From Nitrososphaerota archaeon (GTDB lineage Archaea; Thermoproteota; Nitrososphaeria; Nitrososphaerales; JACPRH01), in assembly GCA_023379805.1 (NCBI GenBank), contig JAMCPI010000017.1, forward strand, positions 19,977 through 83,976: DNA of 64,000 nucleotides, in the 5' to 3' direction. The notes beneath the pieces were generated by a model. The model had not been told where the DNA came from, ran no database searches, and was given only the letters and a program-made list of their open reading frames with translations. Both the position numbers and the translations under genes were made by a program. Shown here piece after piece: positions 10,736-27,775 of the stretch (positions within the stretch are counted from its first letter, which is position 1; each line of letters begins with the position of its first letter).

Positions 10736-11041
10736 CGTCTGTGACCATGTGAAAACCGGCGCCTCAAGGTATAAAAAGTTATACTTCGCCGGTAGCTCGT
10801 AGCATAATGTTTTCTCGGCTGATTCTGAACGTGGATCGACGGGCCAAAACAGGAACAATTCGGACTCAAAGGGAATTATGTTACAATCTAGTCTTCCTTC
10901 TCCTTTGCCTTTTTTGAGAAGGTGGTACGCGAACTCCATTAGTGTGACGCTAGACATGTATTTCTCTGCATCCTCGATGTTTTTGAGCCACTTTAGAAAC
11001 TCCGGCTCAGAGAGAACATTGGTGTCAAGGAGTAATTTCAA
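10736..11041 (-). pseudogene. N-terminal PIN-domain fragment fused in-frame to the vapB-like ORF
   Basis: MKLLLDTNVLSE...SSVTLMEFAYHLLKK...IIPFESELF looks like the first half of a PIN domain. The distal acidic residues are missing, and the frame runs straight into the RHH segment. Confidence 0.4.
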
Positions 11042-11059
11042 CGATAATTCCTTCGAATC

Positions 11060-11431
11060 CTATCGAGTCTTTTTTACAGCGTGGGCGAATCCTTTTCTGC
11101 TCTCTTTCACCGTTTCTTCGATGTCTTCGCAGAGACCGGCTATTTCTTTAATGAACTCGTCCTCTTTCATAACTACGAATTTTCCCCGGGGTTCTTCAAA
11201 AAAGACTATTTTGTCCCCAGGCTTTATCTTGAGCTTCTTTCTAACCTCTTTCGGAATAGTCGCCTGGTACTTCTGCGTCACAGTTGACATATTACTCATT
11301 ACCTCTTTCAATCGGGTCTTTTCTTCAGCGGGCTCAGACTTCCTCAAAATTACTCTGTCGCCCTCAAGTTCGAAAACAACCCTTGAGCCCGGATAAATCC
11401 TAAGCGCCTCTCTAAACACTTTGGGAATCAC
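11060..11431 (-). CDS. AbrB/SpoVT-family antitoxin with two swapped-hairpin domains
   Basis: There are two repeats of the motif: VIPKVFREALRIYPGSRVVFELEGDRVILRK and ATIPKEVRKKLKIKPGDKIVFFEEPRGKFVVMK. GTG start. It lies directly upstream of the PIN fragment. Confidence 0.7.
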   Translation of the reverse strand: MIPKVFREALRIYPGSRVVFELEGDRVILRKSEPAEEKTRLKEVMSNMSTVTQKYQATIPKEVRKKLKIKPGDKIVFFEEPRGKFVVMKEDEFIKEIAGLCEDIEETVKESRKGFAHAVKKTR

Positions 11432-12067: not shown

Positions 12068-12100
12068 GTTGTATGGAGGCCGTCTTACCGTACTTTATAT
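12068..12100 (+). promoter_or_regulatory. Class I promoter box + TATA (paralog 1)
   Basis: GTTGTATGGAGGCCGTCTTACCGTACTTTATAT. 25 of 33 positions are invariant with 14478-14510 and 16954-16986. It ends 26 nt before ATG 12126. Confidence 0.6.
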
Positions 12101-12125
12101 CTTTTCAAAATACAGCGTCTATGAA

Positions 12126-14372
12126 ATGTTAGGTCATAAACTAACTCTATATATTGTACTAACCACTCTCTGCTTCAGCGCCTTTATTCCAGCGCTGGTA
12201 TACGCAGCACCACTAGGAATCACCGCTAAAGACTGGGAGCACACCAACGGCGGCTCATGGGCAGGCAACTACAGCCCACAAACCACCATCACCAAAGACA
12301 ACGTGAACAACCTCGAAGTGAAATGGATCTTTCCCGTCTCACAAAGGGCGCTTGGTCCGAAAGGCATCCAAGGTACAGGTCTCATCGAAGGAGCCAACAC
12401 TCCTCCGATTGTGAGAAACGGCAAGGTCTACGCCCAGACCAACTGGCTAAGACTCTACTCACTGGACGCAGCTTCAGGCAAACTGCTCTGGATGTACGAC
12501 TACTCCGCAAACGTCACCGCACTAACCACAAGGGATCCAGTCGTCATCGGCGGCAGCACCCATTCACACGGCTTCAGATACTGGGAGGCAGGCAACATGA
12601 TTCTGCAAGGCGGCCCACTCTGCGACTTCTACGGAGTCGACGCGGACACCGGCAAGCAGAAGTTCTACGTAGCAGATCTCTGCAACAACATTCCGGGAAG
12701 CATCTACAAGTACGTATCAATCATACCTGGCGGCGGACACGAAATCGCCACCTACGAGAAGGGTAAGCAGTTCATCATCTACTTCCCCGGCGGACGCGGC
12801 GGCGCAATTCTCGCAGGCAGAGCATTCGTCGCAGGAATCAACATGGACAACTACCAAACAGCGTGGCGGGTCTACCTGAACCCGCCTTACGACAAAGCAG
12901 AACCCGACTGGGCACTACAATACTGTGATGTAGGCTACTTCCCATACGGCGTATCCTGCAGTGACGTAGTCAAAATGTTTGGACAAGACGCCCTCAAGTA
13001 CGACTGGCAGAAGGAGCCGGGTAAGCCAATGAACGGCTTCAACGGCGTAAGCAGCGGCTGGGGTCAACCAGTAGTCGACGAAGACACAGGAACAGTCTAC
13101 ATCCCAAGTACAGGGAACCAAAGCCCCTACACAAACGTAACATTCAGGCCCGGACCGAACCTCTACGGAAGCACGATCTTAGCAATCGATCTGAACAAGG
13201 GCTCAATAAAATGGTGGCTACAACCACTTTCACACGATCCTTGGGACTATGACTGCAACTGGGGAGGCATCCTCGCAGACGTCCCAGGAACAGGCAAAGT
13301 CTTCGCCAAAGGCTGCAAAGAAGGCATCCTCTACGTAATGAACGCTGCAACCGGCAAACCGGTCTACTGGGTCGACATCATGAAAGACAACCCGCAACCA
13401 ATGGGAAAGAGAACCATAGAAGTACCTGACCCAAGCACCACCACACCTAAAGTCTTGTACAAGGACTCAACAGGAAAAGAATACAGCTACACCTTCGCCG
13501 AATGGATAAAGCTACCTTGGCCAGGATACCCAGACAACCCACAGATCCCTATGAACCCGATAATACTCAACGGCGCATTCCAAATCGACATGTCCTATGA
13601 CCCAGCCACCCAAACACTCTTCCACTACTACGCGTCAGGTGGACAAAGCATACTGAAGCAGAACCCGATCATCGAAGGAAAAGGCATCTGGAGCTCCAAA
13701 ACCGACAACCCACACAACACTACAATCGTAGCCCGAGACATAACAACAGGCAAAATCAAATGGGAGATACCCCCACTACCCTACAACGTCAGAGGACACC
13801 TACTCATAACAGGCGGAATGGTAGTCAGCCCATTGACAGACGGCTACATCCGATTCTACGACGAATCCACCGGCAAAACCCTACGTGAAATGAACCTCGG
13901 CTCCACACTCGTAACCGGAGTCACCACCGGACAAGACTCTAAAGGAGACCAGAAGATATTCGGCATCATCGGACAAACCACACAGATAGGCATAGTCGAA
14001 CCAGGCACCGTATTCGCACTCGGCCTATCCAGCAACAACGCAGGAGGCGGCGCAACCCCACAAACAACCACAGTCACCACAACCGCAACCACCACAACCA
14101 CAACAGTAAGCACCTCAGCTACAACAGTCACAACAACTGCACCGGCTAAAACCGTAACCACGACAAGCGCCACAACCGTCACCGCAACACAATCAGCTCA
14201 AACACAGACAAAGACTACAACAATCACCTCAAGCGCACCAGCACAAACCACCACCGTAACATCATCAATCACACAAAACACCGGACTACCATCGGAAGTC
14301 ACCTACGGAGCGGTCGGAGTAGCAGTAATAGCTCTGATTGCAGCTGCAGCACTGGCGATGCGGAAAAAGTAG
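12126..14372 (+). CDS. Secreted PQQ-dehydrogenase-like beta-propeller, Thr-rich stalk, C-terminal TM anchor (paralog 1, most divergent)
   Basis: The start is moved from 12069 to ATG 12126, because 12068-12100 is the promoter box shared with paralogs 2 and 3. The signal peptide ends ...FIPALVYAAP. Motifs present: NYSPQTTITKDNVNNLEVKWIFP, HGFRYWE, TGNQSPYTNVTFRPGPNLYGSTILAIDLNKGSIKWWLQPLSHDPWDYDCNW. The tail is GLPSEVTYGAVGVAVIALIAAAALAMRKK. Confidence 0.85.
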   Translation: MLGHKLTLYIVLTTLCFSAFIPALVYAAPLGITAKDWEHTNGGSWAGNYSPQTTITKDNVNNLEVKWIFPVSQRALGPKGIQGTGLIEGANTPPIVRNGKVYAQTNWLRLYSLDAASGKLLWMYDYSANVTALTTRDPVVIGGSTHSHGFRYWEAGNMILQGGPLCDFYGVDADTGKQKFYVADLCNNIPGSIYKYVSIIPGGGHEIATYEKGKQFIIYFPGGRGGAILAGRAFVAGINMDNYQTAWRVYLNPPYDKAEPDWALQYCDVGYFPYGVSCSDVVKMFGQDALKYDWQKEPGKPMNGFNGVSSGWGQPVVDEDTGTVYIPSTGNQSPYTNVTFRPGPNLYGSTILAIDLNKGSIKWWLQPLSHDPWDYDCNWGGILADVPGTGKVFAKGCKEGILYVMNAATGKPVYWVDIMKDNPQPMGKRTIEVPDPSTTTPKVLYKDSTGKEYSYTFAEWIKLPWPGYPDNPQIPMNPIILNGAFQIDMSYDPATQTLFHYYASGGQSILKQNPIIEGKGIWSSKTDNPHNTTIVARDITTGKIKWEIPPLPYNVRGHLLITGGMVVSPLTDGYIRFYDESTGKTLREMNLGSTLVTGVTTGQDSKGDQKIFGIIGQTTQIGIVEPGTVFALGLSSNNAGGGATPQTTTVTTTATTTTTTVSTSATTVTTTAPAKTVTTTSATTVTATQSAQTQTKTTTITSSAPAQTTTVTSSITQNTGLPSEVTYGAVGVAVIALIAAAALAMRKK

Positions 14373-14390
14373 GAGATACCAATCGCAGTA

Positions 14391-14427
14391 GACGATCCTG
14401 AACAAGGATCGTCCTCTCGCATTTTTT
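14391..14427 (+). terminator. Conserved hairpin + T-tract (paralog 1)
   Basis: GACGATCCT (14391-14399), loop gaaca, AGGATCGTC (14405-14413), then TTTTTT at 14422-14427. Confidence 0.6.
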
Positions 14428-14477
14428 ATCACTCCCAACTCAATAGCTGCTCAAGGCTTCTTTAGAGCAGGCAAATA

Positions 14478-14510
14478 GTCGTATGGAGACCATCTTACCC
14501 CACCTTATAA
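14478..14510 (+). promoter_or_regulatory. Class I promoter box + TATA (paralog 2)
   Basis: GTCGTATGGAGACCATCTTACCCCACCTTATAA. It contains ATGG-aga-CCAT dyad symmetry and ends 28 nt before ATG 14538. Confidence 0.6.
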
Positions 14511-14537
14511 CGAACTAAAAGAACCAAAAACCTGAAG

Positions 14538-16840
14538 ATGTTATCGAGCAAATATTGGATAACTAACTGTATATTACTTACCGTACTAACATTCAGCACA
14601 TTCGCACCTATACTAGCATACGCAGCACCCCTAGCAACTTCTGACAAGAACTGGCTGAACATGAACGGGAACACCTGGGCATGGAACTACAGCCCGGAGA
14701 CACAGATCAACAAGGATAACGTGAAGAACCTTGAAGTGAAATGGATATTCCCAATAACTAGCATAGCTCAAGCTGGCCCGAAAGGCTATGTATCACTTCA
14801 GCCTGGAGACGGTTCAAGCACACCGCCTATCGTCAGAAACGGCAAAGTCTACATCACGACCAATTACCAGATGATTATTGCACTAGACGGTAAAACAGGC
14901 AAGCAGCTGTGGAAAAACAGCTACGACATAAACCTCACTCAAGCAGTTCAGCGACTACCCTTAACCCCCGCAACCTTCGGCGGAGTACACAACCACGGCT
15001 TCAGATACTGGGAAACCGGAAACGCGCTCATCAACCGCGGCATAGCATGCGACTTCTACGGAGTTGACGCGGACACCGGCAAAACATCATTCTGGGTCCA
15101 AGACCTATGCAAAGACATCCCAGGCAACCTATACAAGTACAACACCGTCTACGCAGGCGCCAAATCCGGCAGCGTCGGAATATACGAGAAAGGTCACCAG
15201 TTCATCTACGTACTCTCAGGCGCAGTACACTCAAGCCTCTCACCCGCAGGCGATGGAAGACATGTCACAATGGGCATCGACACTACAACAAAGAACGTCA
15301 TATGGAGAGTCTTCAGCGCCCCACCCCAAGACGTTCCAACCAAGGACTGGGCACTCCAAGAATGCAGCATAGGATACTTCCAGACACACCCATGCAGCGA
15401 TGTAGCAGCCAAGAACCGAGCCGGGTTAGAATGGGACTGGGCATTACCCGACGCAGCACCAGTCAAGTGGGCTGGCGTAACCGCTAACTGGGGCCAGCTT
15501 GTCGTCGACGAAGACACCGGAATAGTCTACACTAATACAGGCAACCAGGGACCATACTCAAACATGTCAATGACACCTGGACCAAGACTCTACGGTTCAA
15601 CCATAATGGCCATCGACGTGAACGCAGGCAAACGCATATGGTGGCTACAACCCTTCCCACATGATCCCTATGATTATGACTGCAACTGGAGCGGAATACT
15701 AGCTGATGTTAAGGGCTAGGTAAAGTCTACATGAAGGGATGCAAGGAAGGCATTCTGTATGCAATGGACGCTAAGACAGGTAAGCCGGTGTGGACAGCGG
15801 ACGTAGTAAAGGAACAGGTAACATGGGGACAGATCCAAGCTGCCGCAGCCGAACCCCAGCCGAAAGGCATCCGGGCATATCAGCCAGATCCATATAGCTT
15901 CCACGATATGCGTGAGTGGAACTGGATCAGCTACCCAGCCGCAGCCCCAGGCCAAGCCGGCGAGCGCTGCAACCTTCCCTGCGGTCTATATCCGCACTGG
16001 TCAAACGGACTCTTCGGAACAGACCTCTCATACGATCCGGATACCAACACGCTATTCCAATACGCATCTGGACAACAGGTAGCCTTGCTTAAAGAATTCG
16101 GAATGAAGGATGGCGCAAGCCTCATGAGCACCAAAGGATACTCAATATCTAACTCAACCATAGTAGCCCGCGACGCAGCCACTGGCAACGTCAAGTGGAC
16201 ATGGTTCTACAAGTTCAGCACCCAGCGCAGCCACCTAGTTGTAACCAGTGACATGCTTCTTACAGGCTTCACAGACGGCTACATGCGCTTCTTCGACAAA
16301 AGCTCAGGCAAACTCCTCCGCGAAATGAACATCGGCACCCACATGGTGAACGGCTTCACCACAGGCCAAGACTCAGACGGCAAACAGAAACTATTCGGAG
16401 TTATAGGAGTAGGGGACGCAACCGCAGCCCGAGTATATCCAAGCCCAACAGCAGGAGGTGCAGTAATCGCACTAGGACTCTCAGAAACAGCCGGAGGCGG
16501 CGCAGCCCAAACCACCACAGTCACAACCACCTCAGCCACAACAATCACAACCGCAACCACCAGCACCATAACTACAACATCAGCCACAACAGTTACCAGC
16601 GCAACCACTAACACCGTAACCACAACAAGCGCCACAACCGTCACAGCAACACAATCAGCTCAAACACAAACTAAGACAACCACCGCAACGGTTACCTCCA
16701 ATGCGCCAGCTCAAACCACAACAGTAACCTCACAGGTCACTCAAACCACCGGACTACCCTCAGAAGTCACCTATGCAGCAGTCGGCATAGCTGTAATAGC
16801 TATCGCAGGCGCAGCATTCCTAGCAATGCGGAAGAAGTAG
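14538..16840 (+). pseudogene. PQQ-dehydrogenase-like paralog 2, interrupted by a 1-nt frameshift in a G-run
   Basis: ORFs 14538-15719 and 15731-16840 are the N- and C-halves of one paralog. At 15711-15722, aagGGGctaggt has three Gs. A fourth G would read K-G-L-G-K-V-Y-M-K-G-C-K-E-G, matching the family consensus. This could be a true pseudogene, a sequencing error or a slippage site. Confidence 0.6.
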
Positions 16841-16861
16841 ATAGAAACAACAGTAGAAGAA

Positions 16862-16898
16862 GACGATCCTTACAAAGGATCGTCACTTCAAATTTTTT
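16862..16898 (+). terminator. Conserved hairpin + T-tract (paralog 2)
   Basis: GACGATCCT (16862-16870) pairs with AGGATCGTC (16876-16884), followed by TTTTTT at 16893-16898. Confidence 0.6.
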
Positions 16899-16953
16899 CT
16901 CTGCCTAATAAAAGAGATTGTTCGATTTAAGTAGAATCATTTTAAATTATTTG

Positions 16954-16986
16954 GTCGTATGGATACCGTCTTACCCTACCTTATAA
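16954..16986 (+). promoter_or_regulatory. Class I promoter box + TATA (paralog 3)
   Basis: GTCGTATGGATACCGTCTTACCCTACCTTATAA. It ends 26 nt before ATG 17012. Confidence 0.6.
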
Positions 16987-17011
16987 CCCGCGAACCGAAG
17001 CACTGCTCGAA

Positions 17012-19225
17012 ATGTTATCAAGCAAATCTTGGATAACTAACTGTATAATACTTGTCTTATTGACGTTCAGCACATTCGCAACATCACTAGCATACGCAGC
17101 ACCCCTAGCTAACACCGAGAAGGACTGGCAGTACGTCGGCGGAAACTCTTGGGGTTGGCACTACGGCCCACAAACACAGATCAACAAGAACAACGTCGAC
17201 CAGCTCGAAGTAAAATGGCTCTTCCCGATAGGCGGCCAATCGTCGGCGCCCACAGGAATAAAAGCCATACCCGGAATCAGCGACGGAACAGGCACACCCC
17301 CAATAGTCAGAGACGGATCAGTATACGTATTGAACGATTGGGGAACCATGTACGCTGTAGATGCCGGGACGGGCAAACAAAAATGGTCACATGACTATGT
17401 CATCAACATGGACGAATTACGCAAGAAAATACCGGTGGCGCTCGGAGGACTCATGCATACCCATGGATTCAGATACTGGGAAGGTGGAGACGCACTACTA
17501 GCCTATGGTCTGGCGTGCGACTTCTACGGTGTTGACGCCAAGACCGGCAAGGAGAAGCTATGGGTCAAGGATATCTGTAAGGATGTCCCTGGAAACATCG
17601 GTCAATACAGACCTAGCCCATCCAACACCAATATCATCGGAACCTACGAGAAGGGACGCCAATTCATCATTGTCCTGCCAAGCAGGATTCACAGCAACGT
17701 CGCAGAAGTAGCTCCACAGGAATCTAGACACGTCACAATGGGCATAAGCATGGACGCGCCGTACAAAGTATTATGGCGAGTCTTCAGCTCACCACCTCAA
17801 GACGTTCCAACTAAGGACTGGGCTCTACAAGAGTGTAGCATCGGTTTCTTCCGAGAAATACCCTGCAGCGAAGTTGCAAAGGTGAACCAGAAAGGCCTTG
17901 AATGGGACTGGTCGCTTCCGGAACAAAAGCCAGGATATTTCGCCGGTGTCACAGCCAACTGGGGTCAACCCATAGTTGACGAAGACACAGGCATCATCTA
18001 CACCAACACAGGCAACCAAGGACCATACTCAAACGTATCACTAACACCAGGACCACGCCTCTACGGCAGTACCATCATGGCTATCGATATGAATGCGGGC
18101 AAACGTGTCTGGTGGCTACAGCCATGGCCGCATGACTTCTACGACTACGACTGCAACTGGAGCGGAATACTTGCAGAAAGCTCAACCCTCGGCAAAGTCT
18201 ACACATACGGCTGCAAGGAAGGAAGGTACTTCGTGATGGACGCAGCTAATGGTAAACCGAAGCTGGTGGTCGATGTCCGTGGCGACCAGTTAGCTAGAGG
18301 ACAGATATCAGCAGATCCATTCAAAATGGTCTACCAACCAGATCCTAAGAGCTTCTCCGATATGAGAGAATTCAACTGGATCAGCTGGCCTGCTACAAAG
18401 CCGGGTGAGCAGGGTAAGTTCTGTACCTTGCCTTGCACAGTATATCCGAACTGGACCAACGGGATATTCCAGTCGGACAGAGCGTACGACCCTGAGACAC
18501 AGACATACATACTCTACGAAGGAGCCCTCTGGGCACGAGTATTAGCGGAGCACTCCTACTTCCCAGGTGAGCGTAACTACAACGGCGGAAACTTGTTCAC
18601 AACCCAGCGTTCTCAACCCGTCAACACCACGCTAGTTGCCAGAGACCTCGCAACCGGCAAGGTGAAGTGGACATGGTTCTACCAATACAGCTCGCAGCGT
18701 GCCGCTCCGATTGTATCAGGTGGCATGGTCATCACAGGCTGGCCAGACGGTCTCATGAGGTTCTTCGACAAGGACTCAGGCAAACTCATTCGCCAACTGA
18801 CAATCGGCTCACCGATAATAGTTCAACCTACAATCGGCAAAGACTCATCAGGCAATTCAAAGATATTCCTAGTCGCAGGTGCATCAGGCCCCATGGGAGC
18901 TGGAGATGCTAGATACGGAATGCAAGGGCTAACCAGAGTTCCAGGAACACTCATCGCCATAGGCCTCACAGAAAAGGCGGCGACAGAAATCAAAACAAGC
19001 ACAGTCACAACTACTCAGAGCACAACTCTCACAACAACCTCAGCAACCACTCAGACACAGACTACAACAGTCACCTCAAACGCACCAGCTCAGACACAGA
19101 CTACAACAGTAACCTCACAGGTTACTCAAACAACAGGTCTGCCTTCTGAAGTCACTTACGCGGCAGTCGGTATAGCTGTAATAGCCATCATCGCAGCAGC
19201 AGTACTCGTGATACGGAAGAAGTAG
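17012..19225 (+). CDS. Secreted PQQ-dehydrogenase-like beta-propeller with stalk and C-terminal anchor (paralog 3)
   Basis: 737 aa. The signal peptide ends ...FSTFATSLAYAAP. Motifs present: HGFRYWEGGDA, TGNQGPYSNVSLTPGPRLYGSTIMAIDMNAGKRVWWLQPWPHDFYDYDCNW. A Thr-rich linker is followed by the tail GLPSEVTYAAVGIAVIAIIAAAVLVIRKK. Confidence 0.9.
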   Translation: MLSSKSWITNCIILVLLTFSTFATSLAYAAPLANTEKDWQYVGGNSWGWHYGPQTQINKNNVDQLEVKWLFPIGGQSSAPTGIKAIPGISDGTGTPPIVRDGSVYVLNDWGTMYAVDAGTGKQKWSHDYVINMDELRKKIPVALGGLMHTHGFRYWEGGDALLAYGLACDFYGVDAKTGKEKLWVKDICKDVPGNIGQYRPSPSNTNIIGTYEKGRQFIIVLPSRIHSNVAEVAPQESRHVTMGISMDAPYKVLWRVFSSPPQDVPTKDWALQECSIGFFREIPCSEVAKVNQKGLEWDWSLPEQKPGYFAGVTANWGQPIVDEDTGIIYTNTGNQGPYSNVSLTPGPRLYGSTIMAIDMNAGKRVWWLQPWPHDFYDYDCNWSGILAESSTLGKVYTYGCKEGRYFVMDAANGKPKLVVDVRGDQLARGQISADPFKMVYQPDPKSFSDMREFNWISWPATKPGEQGKFCTLPCTVYPNWTNGIFQSDRAYDPETQTYILYEGALWARVLAEHSYFPGERNYNGGNLFTTQRSQPVNTTLVARDLATGKVKWTWFYQYSSQRAAPIVSGGMVITGWPDGLMRFFDKDSGKLIRQLTIGSPIIVQPTIGKDSSGNSKIFLVAGASGPMGAGDARYGMQGLTRVPGTLIAIGLTEKAATEIKTSTVTTTQSTTLTTTSATTQTQTTTVTSNAPAQTQTTTVTSQVTQTTGLPSEVTYAAVGIAVIAIIAAAVLVIRKK

Positions 19226-19236
19226 AAAAAGCAGAA

Positions 19237-19274
19237 GACGATCCTCACAAGATCGTCCTCCCCTTTCTTTTTTT
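19237..19274 (+). terminator. Conserved hairpin + T-tract (paralog 3)
   Basis: GACGATC (19237-19243) pairs with GATCGTC (19251-19257), followed by TTTCTTTTTTT at 19264-19274. Confidence 0.6.
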
Positions 19275-19292
19275 AATCGTAGTAAAAACTTA

Positions 19293-19410
19293 CGCTTCGT
19301 AGCTGGGTGCTGCGGAGGTGGAGTTGTGGCGGCCGCTTCAGACTGGTCAAGTATTTTCCCACGGGTGCAGGAACCGCATGCCTGCGTCCAACACCCACTT
19401 TTCGTTTTTC
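19293..19410 (+). ncRNA. Copy B of the ~100-nt conserved intergenic element (candidate structured RNA)
   Basis: The core is GAGTTGTGGCGGCCGCTTCAGACTGGTCAAGTATTTTCCCACGG. The hairpin is GGGTGCAGG (19363-19371) / CCTGCGTCC (19381-19389). TTTTTTTAAT lies about 25 nt upstream and a T-rich run TTTTCGTTTTT lies downstream. Confidence 0.4.
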
Positions 19411-19569
19411 AGCAGCAAAAGCAAGGCGAATCTTCTAATGCGAATGTAGCGGATCCAGCGAGCCCTGTCTATCGTGCACCCGCCGATATGTAGGTAAGAC
19501 ACATTAGCTGACATCTTCGGTAATCCGAGCTCCTTAAATCAATGTTATTCCTCATTTTAATTCGTACAT

Positions 19570-20067
19570 ATGGATGCTTCAGACATCGATATTGTAAGGA
19601 TGTTTCGAGCGGAGCTTGCTCAGCTACAAGTCAAGCTTCTCGATATGGGTGACGCTGTTGAGCAGGAACGACTAAGAGACGCTATTAATACTCTCGAAGA
19701 CGCTAGCGTAATACTGAACTCGCACCTTAAATTCGAAGAGGCGTTGTTTCCCAAACTCAAACCCTACTTGGGCAGCTACATGGATCAAGCCACAGAGGAG
19801 CATGACGAAGCTAAGAAAGCAGTCAAACGTCTAAAAGACATCATATCCGATGAAAACCAGACACAAGAAACCAGAGTAGAAGCCGTATGGTGGAACCTAA
19901 GATGGCTCATCGACCACACAACAAACTGCGACTGCCTCGCACTAATGATGGAAAAACTCAGCGGAGACGAGTTACACCAACTCAGACAAAAATTCAAAGA
20001 AGCCAAGCAGGCCAACCCACCACTACTAAAGAAATCAGCCCGCGCAAAACAATCAAACCTAACCTAG
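19570..20067 (+). CDS. Hemerythrin-like (HHE cation-binding) domain protein
   Basis: 165 aa. HLKFEEALFPKL, TEEHDEAKKAVKRL and DHTTNC...LSGDELHQL resemble the H..EE..lfP / EH / H...E repeats of hemerythrin-like domains. The last motif is degenerate. Confidence 0.55.
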   Translation: MDASDIDIVRMFRAELAQLQVKLLDMGDAVEQERLRDAINTLEDASVILNSHLKFEEALFPKLKPYLGSYMDQATEEHDEAKKAVKRLKDIISDENQTQETRVEAVWWNLRWLIDHTTNCDCLALMMEKLSGDELHQLRQKFKEAKQANPPLLKKSARAKQSNLT

Positions 20068-20284
20068 ACCAGTCTTTTTCTAATCTAGAACACTTTGTCC
20101 TATGGATTAAGAATTAAAGAATACTGTCTACAGTTATTTTCACTATTCGTGACGGTCACCGAGGTCAGTTGCAATGTGGGAGCATTTTGATGTGCTGCGA
20201 TTCTCTTATTATATTTAATTCATATTTAAGAATACTTCTGAATTCGCGTCAAAACTTGCTAAAAATAGATTCACTTTTCTTCAC

Positions 20285-20299
20285 AAACTTTATATAAAT
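20285..20299 (+). promoter_or_regulatory. Class II promoter TATA region (paralog 4)
   Basis: AAACTTTATATAAAT lies 44 nt upstream of ATG 20329. The spacing and near-identical sequence match 22786-22800. The proximal GAAAATAACTTATGAAGAAT is also shared. Confidence 0.55.
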
Positions 20300-20328
20300 A
20301 GGATACAGATATTTTCTGAAAATAACTT

Positions 20329-22461
20329 ATGAAGAATAGTAGTAAGCATCAACCGACACTACTGTCTATGCTCGTAATTCTGGCATTCAGCACATTCATG
20401 CCAGCACTAGCCTTCGCAGCACCTACGGGAGACAACGGCAAAGACTGGATGAACACCAACGGCAACAGCTGGGCATGGAATTATAGTCCACAAACCCAGA
20501 TCAACAAGAACAACGTGCAGAACCTTGAAGTGAAATGGGTGTTCCCACTCGCATCCAAGGCTCTGGCGCCAGCAGGAATCCAAGCGGCCGGGATCGGTGA
20601 AGGAACAACAACGCCCCCTATCGTCAGAAACGGAATAGTCTACGTCATTACCAGCTTCATGAAGGCATACGCCATCGACGCAAAGACCGGCAAGCAGATC
20701 TGGACCAATGATTACAGCATCGACATAGAAGCAGCGAAGCAGAGGCTACCGTTAATGATCGCCGGATCCGTTCACAAGCACGGCTTCCAGTACTGGGAAA
20801 GCGGCGACGCGATAATCAACCACGGCTTAGCCTGTGACTTCTACGGCCTTGACGCCAAGACTGGCAAAGAGAAATTCCACGTCAACGATCTCTGCAAAGA
20901 CGTACCTGGATCGCTCTACAAGTATCTGGCACGTCGGCCCGGCGCAGAGCCTAGCATAGGAATCTATGAGAAAGGCCACCAATTCATCTACGTCCTAGCT
21001 GGTTACATGCACAGCACACTTTCAGCCCCAGATGCACGCCACGTCACAATGGGCATTGACATGGACAGCAAACAGATTAAATGGAGAGTCTTCAGTTCAC
21101 CACCACAAGATCAACTCAGCAAAGACTGGGCACTACAGGAGTGCGACATCGGATACTTCAGAACCACCTCCTGCAAAGATGTAGCAGCAGTAAACCAGAA
21201 AGGCTTAGAGTGGGACTTCGCGCTACCCAACGAAAAACCAAGCATGTGGGGTGGAGTGACAGCCAACTGGGGACAGGCAGTAATTGATGAAGACACAGGA
21301 ATAATGTATACTCAGACTGGCAATCAAGGACCGTATTCAAACATGACACTAGTACCAGGACCACGCCTCTACGGAAGCACCATAATGGCCATCGACCTGA
21401 ACCAAGGCAAACGTGTCTGGTGGCTACAGCCATTCCCACACGATCCATATGACTACGACTGCAACTGGAGTGGAATGTTGATCAACAGCAAAGCTCTGGG
21501 CAAAGTCTACGTCAAGGGCTGCAAGGAAGGCATCTTCTACGTGATAGATGCAAAGACAGGTCAACCAAAGTACAGCGTAGATGTGATTAAAGACCAAGTT
21601 GCAAGAGGACAAGTAAGCGCAGCTGCAGCTAAATCTCCGCCTGACGGCATCCGAGCATACATGCCTGATCCAAAGAGCTACCATGACATGAGGGAGTGGA
21701 ACTGGATCAGCTATCCAGCCACTAAGCCAGGTGAGAAAGGAGAGCACTTCACGCTACCTGCATCGATATATCCACACTTCCAGAACGGCATTTTCCAGAC
21801 AGACATGTCCTACGATCCTGAAACAGAAACAATGATCTACTACGAAGGCGCACTCCAAGTAGACGTATTATCTGAACGCCCCTACATACAAGGCGCAGAT
21901 CTCTTCGTAGTCAAGGGATATCCGAAAGCCAATACTACCATAGTAGCGAGGGACATAACCACCGGCAAGGTGAAGTGGACTTGGTTCTATCAACTCAGCA
22001 ACCAGAGAGCAGCCATGGTCGTATCTGGCGGCACAGTCTTCTCCGGGTTTACTGACGGCACGATGAAGTTCTTCAACAAAGACACAGGTGCAGATCTTGC
22101 TAAGATAAACGTCGGAGCACCAGTTCTCGTCGAACCAACAATCGGTACAGACTCAGATGGCAACTCAAAGATATTCGCAGTAGTCGGATCTACATCGATT
22201 TCAGTAGGACCACAGTACGGAGACCCCGGGCCACAAATACCCGGAACACTCATCGCCCTCGGACTGAGAGAGACACCAGTAGCTGAAGTCAAGGTCACAA
22301 CAGTCACAACCAGCACGACAATCACCACTACTCAAGCAGTTACAACCACCCAGTCGATCACAGGAACAAGCGGATTACCAGCAGAAATAACCTACGCGGC
22401 AGTTGCAGTAGCAATAATCGTCAGCATCGCCGCAGCAGTATTAGCAATGCAGAAGAAATAA
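20329..22461 (+). CDS. Secreted PQQ-dehydrogenase-like beta-propeller with stalk and C-terminal anchor (paralog 4)
   Basis: 710 aa. The signal peptide ends ...FSTFMPALAFAAP. Motifs present: HGFQYWESGDA, PHDPYDYDCNWSG. The stalk is short. The tail is GLPAEITYAAVAVAIIVSIAAAVLAMQKK. Confidence 0.9.
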   Translation: MKNSSKHQPTLLSMLVILAFSTFMPALAFAAPTGDNGKDWMNTNGNSWAWNYSPQTQINKNNVQNLEVKWVFPLASKALAPAGIQAAGIGEGTTTPPIVRNGIVYVITSFMKAYAIDAKTGKQIWTNDYSIDIEAAKQRLPLMIAGSVHKHGFQYWESGDAIINHGLACDFYGLDAKTGKEKFHVNDLCKDVPGSLYKYLARRPGAEPSIGIYEKGHQFIYVLAGYMHSTLSAPDARHVTMGIDMDSKQIKWRVFSSPPQDQLSKDWALQECDIGYFRTTSCKDVAAVNQKGLEWDFALPNEKPSMWGGVTANWGQAVIDEDTGIMYTQTGNQGPYSNMTLVPGPRLYGSTIMAIDLNQGKRVWWLQPFPHDPYDYDCNWSGMLINSKALGKVYVKGCKEGIFYVIDAKTGQPKYSVDVIKDQVARGQVSAAAAKSPPDGIRAYMPDPKSYHDMREWNWISYPATKPGEKGEHFTLPASIYPHFQNGIFQTDMSYDPETETMIYYEGALQVDVLSERPYIQGADLFVVKGYPKANTTIVARDITTGKVKWTWFYQLSNQRAAMVVSGGTVFSGFTDGTMKFFNKDTGADLAKINVGAPVLVEPTIGTDSDGNSKIFAVVGSTSISVGPQYGDPGPQIPGTLIALGLRETPVAEVKVTTVTTSTTITTTQAVTTTQSITGTSGLPAEITYAAVAVAIIVSIAAAVLAMQKK

Positions 22462-22474
22462 TAAGTAAAAAGGT

Positions 22475-22511
22475 AGACGATCCTTTAAGGATCGTCTTAC
22501 TCCTATTTTTT
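22475..22511 (+). terminator. Conserved hairpin + T-tract (paralog 4)
   Basis: AGACGATCC...GGATCGTCT (22475-22497), followed by TTTTTT at 22506-22511. Confidence 0.6.
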
Positions 22512-22785
22512 AGGAGATAAAATAGGTTCACAATTGTCCACCTTCTCGAATCAAATTTATCGAATTAACCATTAAAATGTTTCACGAACTCTATATTTCG
22601 ATTCGTCATTATCCTTGTTTAAGAATGGCTGATGCTCGCTACATTATTAGTTCATCCTTGCGCCGCCAGATAATTGTCTTGCCCTTTTCAAAAGAATGTC
22701 AATTCCTTCCATTGGCGACATCAATTCCCAACATATCTAAAATTCTTAATATGGATCGCCGAAAATAAGGTATATACTTCTTCGT

Positions 22786-22800
22786 AAAGTTTATATAAAA
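22786..22800 (+). promoter_or_regulatory. Class II promoter TATA region (paralog 5)
   Basis: AAAGTTTATATAAAA lies 44 nt upstream of ATG 22830. The proximal GAGAATAACTTATGAAGAAT is shared with paralog 4. Confidence 0.55.
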
Positions 22801-22829
22801 ATGCCAATTATAACTACCGAGAATAACTT

Positions 22830-25013
22830 ATGAAGAATGATAGTTATTATCGAGCAACACTAATGTCAATACTCGTAATCCTCGCATTCAGCACTTTCAC
22901 ACCAACACTCGCATTCGCAGCACCCCTCGCCAATAACGACAAAGACTGGCAGTACGTTAACGGTAACAGCTGGGCATGGAACTACAGTCCACAGACACAG
23001 ATCAACAAGGACAACGTCGGCAACCTTGAAGTCAAGTGGATATTCCCTCTTGGAAGCAAAGCGTTAGCGCCGGCAGGCATGCAGGCAATACAAGGGTTTG
23101 CTGAGGGCACAACCACCCCACCGGTTGTTAGAGATGGAACAGTCTTCGTCAACAGCAACTGGGGTAGAATGTACGCCGTTGACGCCGCAACAGGCAAACA
23201 GAAATGGACCTACGACTATGTGCTCAACTTCAGTGATGTACGCAAGAAAATACCCGTGGAAATGGGCGGCATCATACACGACCACGGCTTCAGATACTGG
23301 GAGTCCGGAGATGCACTACTCTCCTACGGTCTAGCCTGTGACTTCTACGGCGTAGATGCAAAGACTGGGAAACAAAAGTTCTGGGTCAAAGACCTCTGCC
23401 TAGATGTACCTGGAAACCTTGGCATATACAGACCTAGTCTAGCCAACAGCGCAGTCATAGGCACCTACGAAAAGGGCCGACAGTTCATCGTCGTGTTCCC
23501 AAGCAGAATCCACAGCAACGTAGCTCAGGTAGCACCGCGCGACTCGAGACACGTCACAATGGGCATCAGCATGGACGCACCATACAAAGTAATGTGGCGA
23601 GTCTACAGCTCTCCACCGCAGGATCAACCCGTCAAAGACTGGGCGATCGCAGAATGTAGCAGCGGTTACTTCCGAGACATACCCTGTACCGAGGCACTAG
23701 CGGCTAACCGCGCAGGACTCGAATGGGACTTCGCACTCCCCAATCAGCCAATCGGCTGGTACGGCGGAGTCACAGCAAACTGGGGTCAACCTGTAGTTGA
23801 CGAAGATACAGGCCTGCTCTACACCCAGACAGGCAACCAAGGACCATACTCCAACATGACACTAGCACCAGGACCAAGACTCTTCGGCAGCACCATAATG
23901 TCCATAGACATGAACGCAGGCAAACGCATCTGGTGGCTACAACCATTCCCCCATGACCCGTATGACTATGACTGCAACTGGAGCGGATTGCTCACAGAAA
24001 ACCCGACGCTTGGCAAGGTCTATGTGTACGGCTGCAAGGAAGGAAGATACTTCGCGATTGATGCAGCTACAGGTAAACCGAAGCTAACTGTCGATGTCCG
24101 TAAAGACCAGTTCGCAAGAGGACAGATCTCTAGCGACCCGTATAAACTCCTCTATGAGCCTGATCCAAGAAGCTACTACGACATGAGGGAATGGAACTGG
24201 ATAAGCTACCCCGCAAAGAAAGTAGGCGAGCAAGGCAAGTTCTGCACCCTACCCTGCACAGTGTACCCGGACTTCTATAATGGCATCTTCGCAACAGACA
24301 GAGCGATAGACCCGCAGACACAAACATACTACCTCCACGAAGACGCGTTGACAGCAAGAATTGACAAGGAACACTCTTACTTCCCAGGAGATGCAAACTA
24401 TGCTGCAGGCAACCTGTTCACCACCTCCAGACCTCTGCCTACCAATAGCACAATCGTCGCCAGAGACCTAGCCACTGGTAAAGTAAAGTGGGTATGGTTC
24501 TTCCCCTACAGTCACCAACGCGCAGCCCCAGTGGTCACCGGAGGCATGGTGTTCAGTGGCTTCACAGACGGATACCTACGCTTCCTAGACAAGGACTCAG
24601 GCAAAATGCTAAACGAGATCGTCGTCGGATCGCCTATCGTAGTCCAACCAACAATCGGCAAAGACTCTCAAGGCAACTCAAAGATATTCGCCATCGTCGG
24701 CGCAACCCGCCTCGCCGGGGCAGCTAACTTCGGACTAGGTGGACAAAGTGATGTACCCGGAACACTAATAGCTCTCGGACTATCCCAGAAAGTCGCAACC
24801 GGAACGACAACAACTGTTACTACCACTTCCGCCACAACTGTTACTAGCACATCAGCTACAACAGTAACCACAGCTGCACCAGCTCAAACTGTGACTTCAT
24901 CGGTCACACAAACCGCGACCACAGGTCTACCAGCAGAAGTCACCTACGGGGCAGTCGGAGTAGCAGTAATAGCTCTGATTGCAGCAGCAGTACTAGTAAT
25001 GCGTAAGAAGTAA
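22830..25013 (+). CDS. Secreted PQQ-dehydrogenase-like beta-propeller with stalk and C-terminal anchor (paralog 5)
   Basis: 727 aa. The body is closest to paralog 3 (shared blocks include IGTYEKGRQFI, SRHVTMGISMDAPYKV, GCKEGRYF). PHDPYDYDCNWSG is present. The tail is GLPAEVTYGAVGVAVIALIAAAVLVMRKK. Confidence 0.9.
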   Translation: MKNDSYYRATLMSILVILAFSTFTPTLAFAAPLANNDKDWQYVNGNSWAWNYSPQTQINKDNVGNLEVKWIFPLGSKALAPAGMQAIQGFAEGTTTPPVVRDGTVFVNSNWGRMYAVDAATGKQKWTYDYVLNFSDVRKKIPVEMGGIIHDHGFRYWESGDALLSYGLACDFYGVDAKTGKQKFWVKDLCLDVPGNLGIYRPSLANSAVIGTYEKGRQFIVVFPSRIHSNVAQVAPRDSRHVTMGISMDAPYKVMWRVYSSPPQDQPVKDWAIAECSSGYFRDIPCTEALAANRAGLEWDFALPNQPIGWYGGVTANWGQPVVDEDTGLLYTQTGNQGPYSNMTLAPGPRLFGSTIMSIDMNAGKRIWWLQPFPHDPYDYDCNWSGLLTENPTLGKVYVYGCKEGRYFAIDAATGKPKLTVDVRKDQFARGQISSDPYKLLYEPDPRSYYDMREWNWISYPAKKVGEQGKFCTLPCTVYPDFYNGIFATDRAIDPQTQTYYLHEDALTARIDKEHSYFPGDANYAAGNLFTTSRPLPTNSTIVARDLATGKVKWVWFFPYSHQRAAPVVTGGMVFSGFTDGYLRFLDKDSGKMLNEIVVGSPIVVQPTIGKDSQGNSKIFAIVGATRLAGAANFGLGGQSDVPGTLIALGLSQKVATGTTTTVTTTSATTVTSTSATTVTTAAPAQTVTSSVTQTATTGLPAEVTYGAVGVAVIALIAAAVLVMRKK

Positions 25014-25032
25014 CCGTAGTAGCAGAAGCATC

Positions 25033-25071
25033 AGGACAATCCCAATGGATTGTCCTTTCCCCTATTTTATT
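25033..25071 (+). terminator. Conserved hairpin + T-tract (paralog 5, compensated stem variant)
   Basis: AGGACAATCC (25033-25042) pairs with GGATTGTCCT (25047-25056). The G-to-A change in the 5' arm is matched by a C-to-T change in the 3' arm relative to the GACGATCC/GGATCGTC consensus. TTTTATT follows. Confidence 0.55.
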
Positions 25072-25084
25072 AGATCATTACGAT

Positions 25085-25185
25085 CACTCCTCGAACGCAG
25101 CAATACCTAGCGGTGGGGTTGTGGCGGCTCACGACAGGCTGGTCACATTTTCCCCACGGGTGCAGGAGCCACATGTCTGCACCCA
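25085..25185 (+). ncRNA. Copy D of the ~100-nt conserved intergenic element (candidate structured RNA)
   Basis: The core is GGGGTTGTGGCGGCTCACGACAGGCTGGTCACATTTTCCCCACGG. The hairpin is GGGTGCAGG (25158-25166) / TCTGCACCC (25176-25184), with 8 Watson-Crick pairs plus a terminal G-U. Confidence 0.4.
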
Positions 25186-25337
25186 AAATTCTTCTATCCA
25201 CTTTTGTGGATCGATCTATCTGATTGAGCATTACTCATGCTGGACGGGTGTCTGTAAAATGGAATTTCTTTCTCCTCCGATTTCATAATTTTGACACCTC
25301 GGTATTACCATTTTCTAGACATCTGCATATTTTTTAC

Positions 25338-25426
25338 TTATTTATGTTAAATTAGGATTATACAAGTTTGTAAATTGGAATTCGAAATATATACGGTACC
25401 AATTCATTTTGCAGAATACTTATATT
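25338..25426 (+). promoter_or_regulatory. Class III promoter (distal box + TATA) of paralog 6
   Basis: The distal box TTATTTATGTTAAATTAGGATTATAC (25338-25363) and the TATA element ACTTATATT (25418-25426) have identical 80-nt and 38-nt spacings to the paralog 7 upstream region (27831/27911/27949). Confidence 0.55.
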
Positions 25427-25455
25427 GCGTATACATCTTCTTGATTTCGAAATTT

Positions 25456-27615
25456 ATGATGTCTATAAGATCACATAAATCTATGATATTGACTGTTCTA
25501 GCGATACTCGCATTCAGCACATTCCTACCCGCACTCGCATTCGCAGCACCAACAGGCGATAACGGCAAAGACTGGATGAACACGAATGGAAACTCCTGGG
25601 CACAGAACTACAGCCCACAAACACAGATCAACAAGAACAACATCAACAACCTAGAGGTGAAATGGCTCTTCCCGCTCGCATCCAAGGGCTTAGCTCCAAA
25701 AGGAATCCAAGCGGCCGGCATCGGCGAAGGAACCACTACACCACCAATTGTAAGAGACGGAAGAGTTTACGTGATCACCAGCTTCATGAAGACCTACGCA
25801 ATCGATGCAAAAACAGGTAAACAGGTCTGGACACACGACTACGACATTGACATCGAAGCAGCAAAGCAGAGATTACCTCTAATGATAGCTGGATCAGTTC
25901 ACAAACACGGCTTCCAGTACTGGGAGGGCGGAGACGCCATCATTAACCACGGACTAGCCTGCGACTTCTATGCACTTGACGCCAAAACCGGCAAGGAGAA
26001 GCTCCGCGTCGAAGACCTATGCAAAGACGTGCCTGGATCACTCTACAAGTATCTAGCGCGTCGACCCGGCGCAGAGCCCAGTATCGGGATCTACGAGAAG
26101 GGTCACCAATTCATCTATGTCTTAGCAGGCTACATGCATAGCAGCCTTACCGCACCAGACGCACGGCACGTCACCATGGGAATCGACATGGACAGCAAGA
26201 ACATCAAATGGAGAGTCTTCAGTGCTCCACCGCAAGATGTTCCAACTAGAGACTGGGCCCTACAGGAATGTGACATAGGCTACTTCCGCGACATTCCATG
26301 CAAAGACGTAGCGGCCAAGAACCTGAAAGGGCTCGAATGGGACTGGGCTCAACCAGGTGAAAAACCAAGCATGTGGGGTGGAGTAACTGCTAACTGGGGC
26401 CAAGCAATAGTTGACGAAGACACAGGCATCATGTACACCAACACAGGTAACCAAGGACCATACTCAAACATGTCAATGACACCCGGACCTCGTCTCTACG
26501 GAAGCACAATCATGGCAATCGACCTAAACAAAGGTAAGAGAGTTTGGTGGCTACAACCCTTCCCGCACGATCCATACGACTATGACTGCAACTGGAGCGG
26601 AATACTAGCTGAAGTCAAGGGTGTTGGCAAAGTCTACGCCAAAGGCTGCAAGGAGGGTATCCTCTACGTGGTTAACGCAGCTACGGGTAAGCCATTGTAC
26701 AAGGTGGATGTGAGAGATGATCAACTAGCAAGAAGGCAGATATCTACGCTAAGCAACAAGGCGTACGCACCTGATCCGATGAGCTACCACGATCTTAGGG
26801 AGTGGAACTGGATTAGCTACCCAGCCACAAAGCCAGGTGAGAAAGGGGAACACTGCACTCTACCATGCTCAATCTATCCAGCCTTCATGAACGGCATCTT
26901 CCAAACCGACATGTCCTATGACCCTGAAACCCAAACATTGATACTCTACGAAGGCGCACTGCAAGTAAACATCCTATCTGAACACCCATATGCCCAAGGC
27001 GCAGAGCTCTTCAGAACCAGCATGTATCCAACTGCGAACACCACAATCGTAGCTAGAGATCTAGCCACTGGCAAAGTGAAGTGGACTTGGTTCTACCAAT
27101 TGAGCAACCAGAGAGCGGCCATGGTAGTATCAGGAGGTACAGTATTCACCGGATTCACTGATGGACAAATGCGCTTCCTAGACAAGGACACAGGCAAGGA
27201 ACTAGGCAAGCTAAGCCTCGGATCACCAGTCCTCGTTCAACCAACTATAGGTCAAGATACAGATGGTAACTCAAAGATATTCGCGGTTGTCGGATCCACA
27301 TCACTCGCCTCAGGACCGCAGTACGGCAATCCAGGACCAACGATCCCAGGAACACTAGTCGCCATCGGCCTGAGTGACAAGGCAGCCCAAATCGTCACCA
27401 GTACATCTACAACTACCGCAACCACTACTGCAATCTCTAGCACCACAGCAACTACAACAGTCACATCAAGTGCACCGGCACAAACTATAACCACATCAAT
27501 CACCCAAACTCAAACCGAGACCTCAGGTCTACCATCAGAAGTAACCTATGCAGCAGTCGGCATAGCTGTAATAGCTATCGCAGGCGCAGCATTCTTAGCA
27601 ATGCGGAAGAAGTAG
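25456..27615 (+). CDS. Secreted PQQ-dehydrogenase-like beta-propeller with stalk and C-terminal anchor (paralog 6)
   Basis: The start is moved from 25375 to ATG 25456. It lies 38 nt after ACTTATATT, as in paralog 7, within the shared TTTCGAAAtTTATG context. The signal peptide ends ...FSTFLPALAFAAP. PHDPYDYDCNWSG is present. The tail is GLPSEVTYAAVGIAVIAIAGAAFLAMRKK. Confidence 0.88.
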   Translation: MMSIRSHKSMILTVLAILAFSTFLPALAFAAPTGDNGKDWMNTNGNSWAQNYSPQTQINKNNINNLEVKWLFPLASKGLAPKGIQAAGIGEGTTTPPIVRDGRVYVITSFMKTYAIDAKTGKQVWTHDYDIDIEAAKQRLPLMIAGSVHKHGFQYWEGGDAIINHGLACDFYALDAKTGKEKLRVEDLCKDVPGSLYKYLARRPGAEPSIGIYEKGHQFIYVLAGYMHSSLTAPDARHVTMGIDMDSKNIKWRVFSAPPQDVPTRDWALQECDIGYFRDIPCKDVAAKNLKGLEWDWAQPGEKPSMWGGVTANWGQAIVDEDTGIMYTNTGNQGPYSNMSMTPGPRLYGSTIMAIDLNKGKRVWWLQPFPHDPYDYDCNWSGILAEVKGVGKVYAKGCKEGILYVVNAATGKPLYKVDVRDDQLARRQISTLSNKAYAPDPMSYHDLREWNWISYPATKPGEKGEHCTLPCSIYPAFMNGIFQTDMSYDPETQTLILYEGALQVNILSEHPYAQGAELFRTSMYPTANTTIVARDLATGKVKWTWFYQLSNQRAAMVVSGGTVFTGFTDGQMRFLDKDTGKELGKLSLGSPVLVQPTIGQDTDGNSKIFAVVGSTSLASGPQYGNPGPTIPGTLVAIGLSDKAAQIVTSTSTTTATTTAISSTTATTTVTSSAPAQTITTSITQTQTETSGLPSEVTYAAVGIAVIAIAGAAFLAMRKK

Positions 27616-27637
27616 TGACCGAAGCAACGGTAACAAT

Positions 27638-27672
27638 GGGCGATCCTTCCGGATCGTCCCCCCTCTTTTATT
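27638..27672 (+). terminator. Conserved hairpin + weak T-tract (paralog 6)
   Basis: GGGCGATCC (27638-27646), loop ttcc, GGATCGTCC (27651-27659) with one G-U pair, followed by TTTTATT. Confidence 0.5.
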
Positions 27673-27682
27673 GGGATATTAC

Positions 27683-27775
27683 ACTTGCTCCTCAAACGCG
27701 GCGATACCTCGCATAGCGGGGGATTGTGTCGGCTTAGATGAATATCCGTGTGACCTTTTCCGCCCTTCCCCGCTT
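27683..27775 (+). repeat. Copy E (degenerate) of the conserved intergenic element
   Basis: CTTGCTCCTCAAACGCGGCGATACCTCGCATAGCGGGGGATTGTGTCGGCT aligns with 25085-25128 of copy D. The 3' hairpin half has eroded. Confidence 0.35.

Follow-up and report, generated by a model that had tools for sequence, protein, structure and literature searches.

Eight paralogous, probable surface quinoproteins of a Nitrososphaerota archaeon: a plausible lanthanide-dependent clade without the vicinal Cys-Cys

Heterotrophic Thaumarchaeota are abundant in the deep ocean, in groundwater and in acid soils, and quinoproteins are among their most highly expressed genes; lanthanide-dependent enzymes have, to our knowledge, been demonstrated biochemically in Bacteria only. 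From 4 to 19 quinoproteins were reported per metagenome-assembled genome (MAG) of heterotrophic marine Thaumarchaeota (HMT), together with a synthase of pyrroloquinoline quinone (PQQ), and these proteins were described as having signal peptides and transmembrane (TM) anchors, lacking the vicinal Cys-Cys and, in some cases, carrying an Asp-Tyr-Asp (DYD) motif (Aylward & Santoro 2020, PMC7300363). For Gagatemarchaeaceae / Group I.1c up to eight colocalised copies were reported, and mesophilic Thaumarchaeota were reported to have gained pqqC in their ancestor (Sheridan et al. 2023, PMC10640624), and a 2026 preprint labelled one Nitrososphaerales model of the AlphaFold database (AFDB) ‘2D-1E-1N’ and called the evidence for archaeal lanthanide proteins minimal. 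Here we describe a 64 kb stretch of contig JAMCPI010000017.1 from a Nitrososphaerota archaeon (assembly GCA_023379805.1), called the window hereafter and giving all coordinates below, in which eight genes encode paralogous quinoprotein-like proteins of a non-ammonia-oxidising thaumarchaeon.

The window proteins share with the thaumarchaeal PQQ-dehydrogenase families of HMT and Gagatemarchaeaceae the origin in non-ammonia-oxidising Nitrososphaerota, the many colocalised copies (4–19 and up to 8), the signal peptide and TM segment, the lack of Cys-Cys and the DYD, which some of those families carry, and on these features they are members of those families. The core idea, that of Cys-Cys-less DYD quinoproteins, is already published for the same family, and the motif-level prediction is repeated and left unsettled here. 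The present MAG differs in being another organism and in having all its eight copies in one DYD subfamily. New here are a covarying Cys pair (DxD-C/C-K), a displaced Glu in the subfamily, and a His pair in the region of Arg109 and Cys-Cys of methanol dehydrogenase (MDH); PMC7300363 and PMC10640624 do not describe the His for Arg109, the Met-His for Glu177, the DxD-C/C-K pair or the loss of His198/Asp208. Our reading, to which we give a probability of roughly 0.5, is that the eight proteins are extracellular PQQ-type dehydrogenases with a lanthanide as the most likely metal, and a lanthanide-dependent, Cys-Cys-less surface quinoprotein clade appears plausible from the sequences.

An earlier note on this DNA had listed eight paralogs that all read HD[PF][YW]DYDCNW, and this count was reproduced: a six-frame motif scan of the window found the motif once in each of eight plus-strand open reading frames (ORFs), starting at 13233, 15660, 18131, 21439, 23952, 26566, 29062 and 46363, and tblastn with paralog 3 as query returned exactly eight copies and zero extra fragments. 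The translations agree with the note in placing HDFYDYDCNW at 18131–18160 (+) in paralog 3 and HDPYDYDCNW at 15660–15689 in paralog 2. In paralog 3, whose mature numbering is used throughout, Asp349 (18143–18145) aligns with the catalytic Asp303 of MDH and Asp351 (18149–18151) with the +2 lanthanide-ligand position, the latter being directly followed by Cys352 (18152–18154). This mapping, on which the note had built its proposal, was obtained by each of three methods: phmmer paired phdfydydcnw with PedH phdgwdfdgvn, MAFFT paired the motif with PHDEWDYDGVN of XoxF5 (the reference being taken from two rhizobial plasmids), and hhalign paired D-Y-D with D303-Y-A305 of MxaF, the MDH sequence used being 100% identical to PDB 1H4I and hence in standard MDH numbering. 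As for the reference motifs that the note had given, WDYDG is right for XoxF5, MxaF reads WDYAG instead of WDFAG, and PedH reads WDFDG.

Conservation was counted in a 118-sequence alignment of the family (A1), and the motif column was also read in 128 family sequences. Both Asp of D-Y-D are invariant (118/118), and in the 128 sequences the pattern is, with nearly no exceptions, [HR]D.[YWF]D[YF]D[CA]NW, so that the motif comes from homology and not from chance. The motif GNQ[GS]PY[ST]N is found in 8/8 paralogs, and its first Asn was correctly taken in the note for the metal-ligand Asn: Asn306 of TGNQGPYSN (18014–18016, +; 117/118 conserved) aligns with Asn261 of MDH and Asn256 of XoxF. Trp288 (17960–17962, +) aligns with the PQQ-stacking Trp243 of MDH, and Lys373 of Cys372-Lys373 in GCKEG (18212–18217, +) with Arg331 of MDH, a position where type II alcohol dehydrogenases (ADHs) and E. 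coli Gcd have Lys as well. The residues invariant in the alignment are Trp288, Asp349, Asp351, Lys373, Arg210, Arg534 and His122. A PQQ-type cofactor would most likely lie on Trp288, beside a metal held by Asn306, Asp349 and Asp351, with Asp349 acting also as the catalytic base and Lys373 taking the place of Arg331 as in type II ADHs and glucose dehydrogenase; because of the extra Asp at +2, a trivalent lanthanide would be the most likely metal.

The lanthanide enzymes XoxF, ExaF and PedH (4MAE, 6DAM, 6OC5, 6ZCW) resemble the paralogs in their 8-bladed propeller, in having a catalytic Asp with a second Asp at +2, a metal Asn and a stacking Trp, and in the sequence context HD-x-[WY]-D-[YF]-D, but the identity is only 17–19%. 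The window paralogs also differ in having no Cys-Cys and no in-register Glu172, in having His for Arg109, Lys for Arg331 and Gln-Arg for Trp476, in scoring below the TIGR03075 cut-off, and in being membrane-anchored at the C-terminus, whereas the bacterial enzymes are soluble and periplasmic; no XoxG/XoxJ partners were found in the window.

The membership in the quinoprotein fold was evident at several levels. Five paralogs matched PF01011 with 107–142 bits (gathering cut-off 26.7), and an AlphaFold2 model of mature paralog 3, built with 118 sequences, reached a pLDDT (score of the predicted local-distance difference test) of 93.4 and a predicted template modelling score (pTM) of 0.93. Foldseek with this model matched 30 solved quinoprotein chains at 16–20% identity, among them XoxF, MxaF, PedH, ExaA, type II/III ADHs and sorbose dehydrogenase, and the solved 8-bladed PQQ dehydrogenases scored all about equal (E 1e-33 to 1e-27, TM-score 0.61–0.75), while the next group, with tetrathionate hydrolase and BamB, was far weaker at about 1e-13 to 1e-14. 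As modelled, the fold is the 8-bladed quinoprotein propeller. The BamB-like annotation that many homologs carry in the Joint Genome Institute (JGI) records was rejected, the matches having a Foldseek E of about 1e-13 and a TM-score of 0.41–0.45 and spanning single blades. Among PDB sequences, the best profile–sequence matches were the quinoprotein and quinohaemoprotein ADHs 1FLG, 1KB0, 1KV9 and 1YIQ (E 6e-32 to 3e-29). These type I/II ADHs, of which type II share the Lys (PKNG), differ from the window paralogs in having Cys-Cys, Arg109 and Glu177, in having Ser/Thr/Asn at +2 and using Ca, and, in type II, in a haem c domain.

The two Cys flanking the active-site strands, Cys352 directly after DYD and Cys372 directly before Lys373, covary. 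Within the family the losses are double in 3/3 cases (A/A, A/A and T/G), and in an alignment of 90 sequences, 5 of them references and 85 superfamily representatives or window paralogs, 64 were C/C, 25 non-C/non-C and only 1 mixed. It follows from the MDH topology and the strand map of the model that the two residues would stand on neighbouring antiparallel strands of a single blade, both at the top; covariation and strand positions together point to a likely cross-strand disulfide in the active site, which would appear to secure the strand with Asp-x-Asp to the strand with the Lys. Two more Cys pairs, 140/160 and 246/256, are invariant.

The canonical vicinal disulfide is gone, as the note had claimed. 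A word-indexed homology search returned 496 relatives, and zero CC dipeptides were found in the 120 database homologs examined, paralog 3 itself among them, nor was any present in the printed translations of the eight paralogs. HMMER against PDB aligned blades 1 and 5–8 only, and therefore MAFFT and local hhalign were used for the region of Cys-Cys, Arg109 and Glu177. By hhalign, the positions of Cys103-Cys104 align to Leu-Gly, upstream of the HxHG[FI]RYW motif, whose H-x-H lies at 17456–17464 (+); the second His (His122, invariant) takes the position of MDH Arg109, and His120 is conserved in 116/118. The H-x-H-G motif would thus replace both the vicinal disulfide and Arg109. Trp476 of MDH is replaced by Gln-Arg, the Arg of which is invariant (FRGG in sister clades).

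A further departure is at the site of MDH Glu177, in the B-C loop of blade 3 (17690–17731, +; residues 194–211 of mature paralog 3, bounded by the model strands), which carries an insertion of 8–13 residues and contains His198 (17690–17692), Glu/Asp208 (17720–17722), His211 and the invariant Arg210. Without gaps, Glu177 is aligned to Met/Ile197; hhalign, by opening a gap of one residue, aligns it to His198 (90% conserved). Residue 208 is Asp/Glu in 89%, two residues before the invariant Arg that matches the Arg of MDH ‘GVRG’. The note had placed an acidic residue, in [DE][AGS]RHVTMGI, near the metal-ligand Glu in seven of the eight copies. The motif is found in 7/8 paralogs and paralog 1 has GRAFVAGI instead, as claimed; the residue is not in register with Glu177 and lies ten positions further on, inside the insertion. 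In sister thaumarchaeal subfamilies the loop is shorter and an acidic residue stands in register (SGGDG, SVGEG, SVSEG versus SGGEF of XoxF), from which it can be concluded that the window subfamily has specifically replaced it. Met-His would stand in register for the bidentate Glu, and the subfamily-specific Asp/Glu208 may complete the coordination sphere. In sister clusters (P0130–P0213), Gln (31), Glu (8) or Asp (5) often stands where MDH has the metal-ligand Asn261, so the metal site varies widely across the superfamily.

A series of observations weighs against a lanthanide-dependent dehydrogenase, beginning with this loop: Glu177/172 is not kept in register, neither His198 (90%) nor Asp/Glu208 (89%) is invariant, the two are lost jointly in 13/118 homologs, paralog 1 included, and His binds hard Ln3+ ions poorly. 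A site of this kind might hold another metal, for example a transition metal bound through His198, His120, His122 or His211 plus the two Asp, with non-classical cofactor chemistry. The His at the Arg109 and Glu177 positions and at 211 (conserved in 92%) would suit such a metal, the joint loss of His198/Asp208 (13/13) suggests a working pair, and sister subfamilies, in which Gln, Glu or Asp stands for the metal Asn, speak for a site that is plastic in evolution. We nevertheless regard this alternative as improbable, since positive evidence of a transition metal is lacking, the Trp/Asn/Asp/Lys core for PQQ and metal is intact, the sister subfamilies have the XoxF-like Glu/Asp in register, and the His could just hydrogen-bond the PQQ carboxylates. 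Asn, D-Y-D, Lys and Trp are still present in paralog 1 and in the 12 database homologs without His198/Asp208.

On the side of the cofactor, Arg109, Thr159, Ser174, Trp476 and Trp540 of MDH are all replaced. A loss of PQQ contacts throughout, which the note had set against its own proposal, is seen in part: about half of the MDH contacts are replaced, and the Trp/Asn/Asp/Lys core is kept. Moreover, blades 2–4 could not be aligned to any solved quinoprotein by profile HMMER (PDB sequences), and the family models were matched far below their cut-offs, with 136–170 bits on the methanol/ethanol model TIGR03075 (cut-off 480) and 80–103 bits on the membrane glucose dehydrogenase (mGDH) model TIGR03074 (cut-off 833). 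Membership in the ‘acido-empty-quinoprotein group A’ (TIGR04528) was rejected as well, at 97–127 bits (cut-off 650). With its about equal structural matches to all solved 8-bladed PQQ dehydrogenases at 16–20% identity, the family is a deep, separate branch. Non-catalytic surface propellers that have lost PQQ, i.e. ‘empty quinoproteins’ serving in binding, adhesion or association with the S-layer, would account for the replaced contacts, for the sub-threshold matches to TIGR04528 and for a window without pqq genes, but the catalytic Asp, the +2 Asp, Asn, Trp and Lys are kept in 117–118 of 118 sequences. The core being kept while the paralogs are only 47–79% identical is the pattern expected from purifying selection on an active site, and we hold the loss of the cofactor to be highly improbable.

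The metal is challenged further by E. coli Gcd, which reads HHDLWDMDL (residues 462–470) and so carries D466-M-D468 without Cys-Cys. Gcd is classically reconstituted with Mg2+/Ca2+. As an mGDH that carries D-x-D and was characterised with Ca/Mg, it makes D-x-D alone insufficient for lanthanide use, and Voutsinos et al. 2025 (PMC11996626), who acknowledge the motif in characterised mGDH, only predict facultative lanthanide use for it. The window proteins may accordingly be PQQ dehydrogenases that run on Ca2+/Mg2+ or are metal-promiscuous, like mGDH, the +2 Asp then being a lineage feature; D466-M-D468, the missing Cys-Cys and the Lys at the Arg331 position in Gcd favour this, and without the bidentate Glu in register there are fewer oxygen donors than expected for a nine-coordinate Ln3+. 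Against it, the D-x-D enzymes of the MDH/ADH branch tested so far are all lanthanide-dependent (PMC11996626; 10.64898/2026.07.10.737718), both Asp are invariant in the family, and the family scores higher on the methanol/ethanol model than on the mGDH model. We take Ca2+/Mg2+ use to be a serious possibility, albeit not the favoured one. With Gcd the paralogs have in common the missing Cys-Cys, the Lys at Arg331, D-x-D, membrane attachment and the insertion in the blade-3 loop, but in Gcd five N-terminal helices form the anchor, Arg109 is kept (CRG), Asp354 stands in register for Glu177 and the metal Asn is lacking, whereas the window paralogs appear to have a cleavable N-terminal signal peptide and a C-terminal anchor.

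Two further points weigh against the lanthanide-dependent reading. The literature search retrieved no report of biochemical evidence for any archaeal member, and among the ORFs of the 64-kb window none was a pqq, cupredoxin, cytochrome (XoxG included) or lanthanide-handling gene, whereas a c-type cytochrome adjoins XoxF5 at the bacterial locus. For marine relatives, blue copper proteins or quinone were proposed as electron acceptors. With lanthanide-dependent dehydrogenases as the favoured reading, the paralogs would act outside the cell as oxidases of different alcohols, sugars or aldehydes in the broad sense of removing their electrons, which would go to the respiratory chain. The departures might even define a distinct quinoprotein class, ‘HxH ... 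DxD-C ... C-K’, in which the disulfide and the His pair replace Cys-Cys/Arg109 and the His198/Asp208 pair replaces the Glu, which we propose only tentatively and think rather doubtful.

Should the metal prove to be a lanthanide, Archaea would here have their first demonstrated lanthanide enzymes, with a non-canonical coordination sphere (three Asp and one Asn) and displayed on the surface of organisms without c-type cytochromes. True use of rare earths would tie archaeal carbon oxidation to lanthanide availability and widen the known coordination chemistry, since the vicinal disulfide is absent and no Glu stands in register. As full-length genes the eight paralogs offer concrete constructs, and paralog 1 is a natural ‘loop-minus’ variant that could reveal the role of the loop.

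The cell-surface location advanced in the earlier note fits the termini of the proteins. Paralog 3 begins with a Sec-type signal peptide read by eye from the sequence (17012–17098, +; MLSSKSWITNCIILVLLTFSTFATSLAYA, with APL following the predicted cleavage site). Cleavage-type sites of the form A[YF]A followed by AP occur in 6/8 paralogs, and paralogs 1 and 8 read ALVYA followed by AP. The C-terminal module of paralog 3 (18968–19225, +) comprises a linker rich in Thr and Ser, then GLPSEVTY, a hydrophobic helix and RKK. In all eight paralogs the linker is 28–63% Ser/Thr, the hydrophobic helix spans some 20 residues and the chain ends in [RQ]KK. Seven have GLP[SA]E[VI]TY before the helix; paralog 7 has ETIGPITY, with TY, helix and RKK kept. 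The proteins would be exported by Sec and then tethered at the outer face through a Thr-rich, probably glycosylated stalk and a single C-terminal helix, and a surface-tethered, probably glycosylated enzyme is a reasonable reading of these signals. Known archaeosortase/sortase signals were rejected on score, with 16–17.5 bits for PGF-CTERM (cut-off 24.5) and 10–11.5 bits for PEF-CTERM (cut-off 23); the tripartite architecture is the only feature that the tail shares with PGF-CTERM, PEF-CTERM or LPXTG signals, and the conserved tail may be an undescribed thaumarchaeal anchor signal. The paralog products have 4–6 N-x-S/T sequons in addition to the Thr-rich stalks, and an AglB/STT3 oligosaccharyltransferase (40241–42427, −) and a weak OST3/OST6-like ORF (51338–51805, +) are encoded near the paralogs.

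The family as a whole is best explained as restricted to Nitrososphaerota (Thaumarchaeota). Of the 496 relatives, those named by organism were all Thaumarchaeota or Thermoproteota except one, labelled Candidatus Thorarchaeota (P0097). A scan with one genome per GTDB species gave 25 family loci, all in Nitrososphaerota MAGs and commonly in tandem arrays; one groundwater MAG had 18 of them, and a soil MAG and two marine oxygen-minimum-zone MAGs were also positive. The homologs in marine oxygen-minimum-zone Nitrososphaerales MAGs are 46–48% identical to paralog 3; two marine copies that were read through (L023 and L025) have the same HxHG, TGNQ, DYDC and GCKEG motifs as the window paralogs, and three have a C-terminal anchor of the same kind. 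An exhaustive profile search further yielded 162 clusters (50% identity) at E <= 1e-30, a superfamily with the signature HD-x-W-D-x-D-C-[NSA]-W in which a TM helix and basic tail end most full-length members, and its named members are again Nitrososphaerota.

In the window, seven paralogs are arranged head-to-tail from 12069 to 30060 and paralog 8 stands apart, 15 kb downstream of the tandem array. All are on the plus strand. Paralog 1 (12069–14372, an ORF of 767 aa with the probable true start ATG at 12126) has its DYD at 13245–13253 and lacks both His198 and Asp208 in the loop near 12750–12800 (GGRGGAILAGRAF). Paralog 2 (14538–16840) is one gene split by a frameshift into two ORFs, 14538–15719 and 15731–16840. 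A single T is missing, the window reading GGGCTAGG at 15714–15721 where the public record JAMCWH010000017.1 reads GGGCTTAGG; the two are identical over 6.2 kb apart from this T, and putting it back yields an intact paralog 2 of 767 aa. The split stems either from an error of assembly or sequencing or from pseudogenisation in the very recent past. Paralog 3 (17012–19225, 737 aa), the copy named in the earlier note, has a 100% identical counterpart in assembly GCA_023481325.1, the MAG of a ‘Thaumarchaeota archaeon’. The remaining copies are paralog 4 (20329–22461, 710 aa), paralog 5 (22830–25013, 727 aa, 70% identical to paralog 3), paralog 6 (25375–27615, an ORF of 746 aa with a probable start near 25456, 79% identical to paralog 4), paralog 7 (27931–30060, 709 aa), which covers PF01011 best (142 bits) and scores highest on TIGR03075 (170 bits), and paralog 8 (45244–47367, 707 aa).

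The neighbours are archaeal housekeeping genes, among them those of PCNA, both primase subunits, GINS, AglB, Hef and a topoisomerase: a replication cluster with PCNA, the large and small primase subunits and GINS51 lies at 33639–37949 (+), the topoisomerase at 47844–50015 and the Hef helicase-nuclease at 61457–63733. A hemerythrin-domain ORF, which is also called in the public record, is located between paralogs 3 and 4 (19570–20067, +) and was not a conserved neighbour in the 25 related loci. Defence-like or toxin–antitoxin genes are found at 4228–7999 (−), 10038–11431 and 31634–32961 (−), and encode an N6-methylase/Eco57I-like protein of 983 aa, a fusion of MarR with a nucleotidyltransferase, PIN and MazE-type pairs and a nucleotidyltransferase resembling AbiEii. 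At 53784–55148 (−) one gene joins a NUDIX domain with an IF-2B/ribose-1,5-bisphosphate-isomerase domain, and a separate NUDIX gene lies at 56453–56893 (+); NUDIX and ribose-1,5-bisphosphate isomerase belong to a nucleotide-salvage route feeding form III RuBisCO that was proposed for HMT. At the window edge, an ORF (7–831, +) weakly matches the C-terminal domain of GMC oxidoreductases, which form one more class of extracytoplasmic oxidoreductases for alcohols or sugars.

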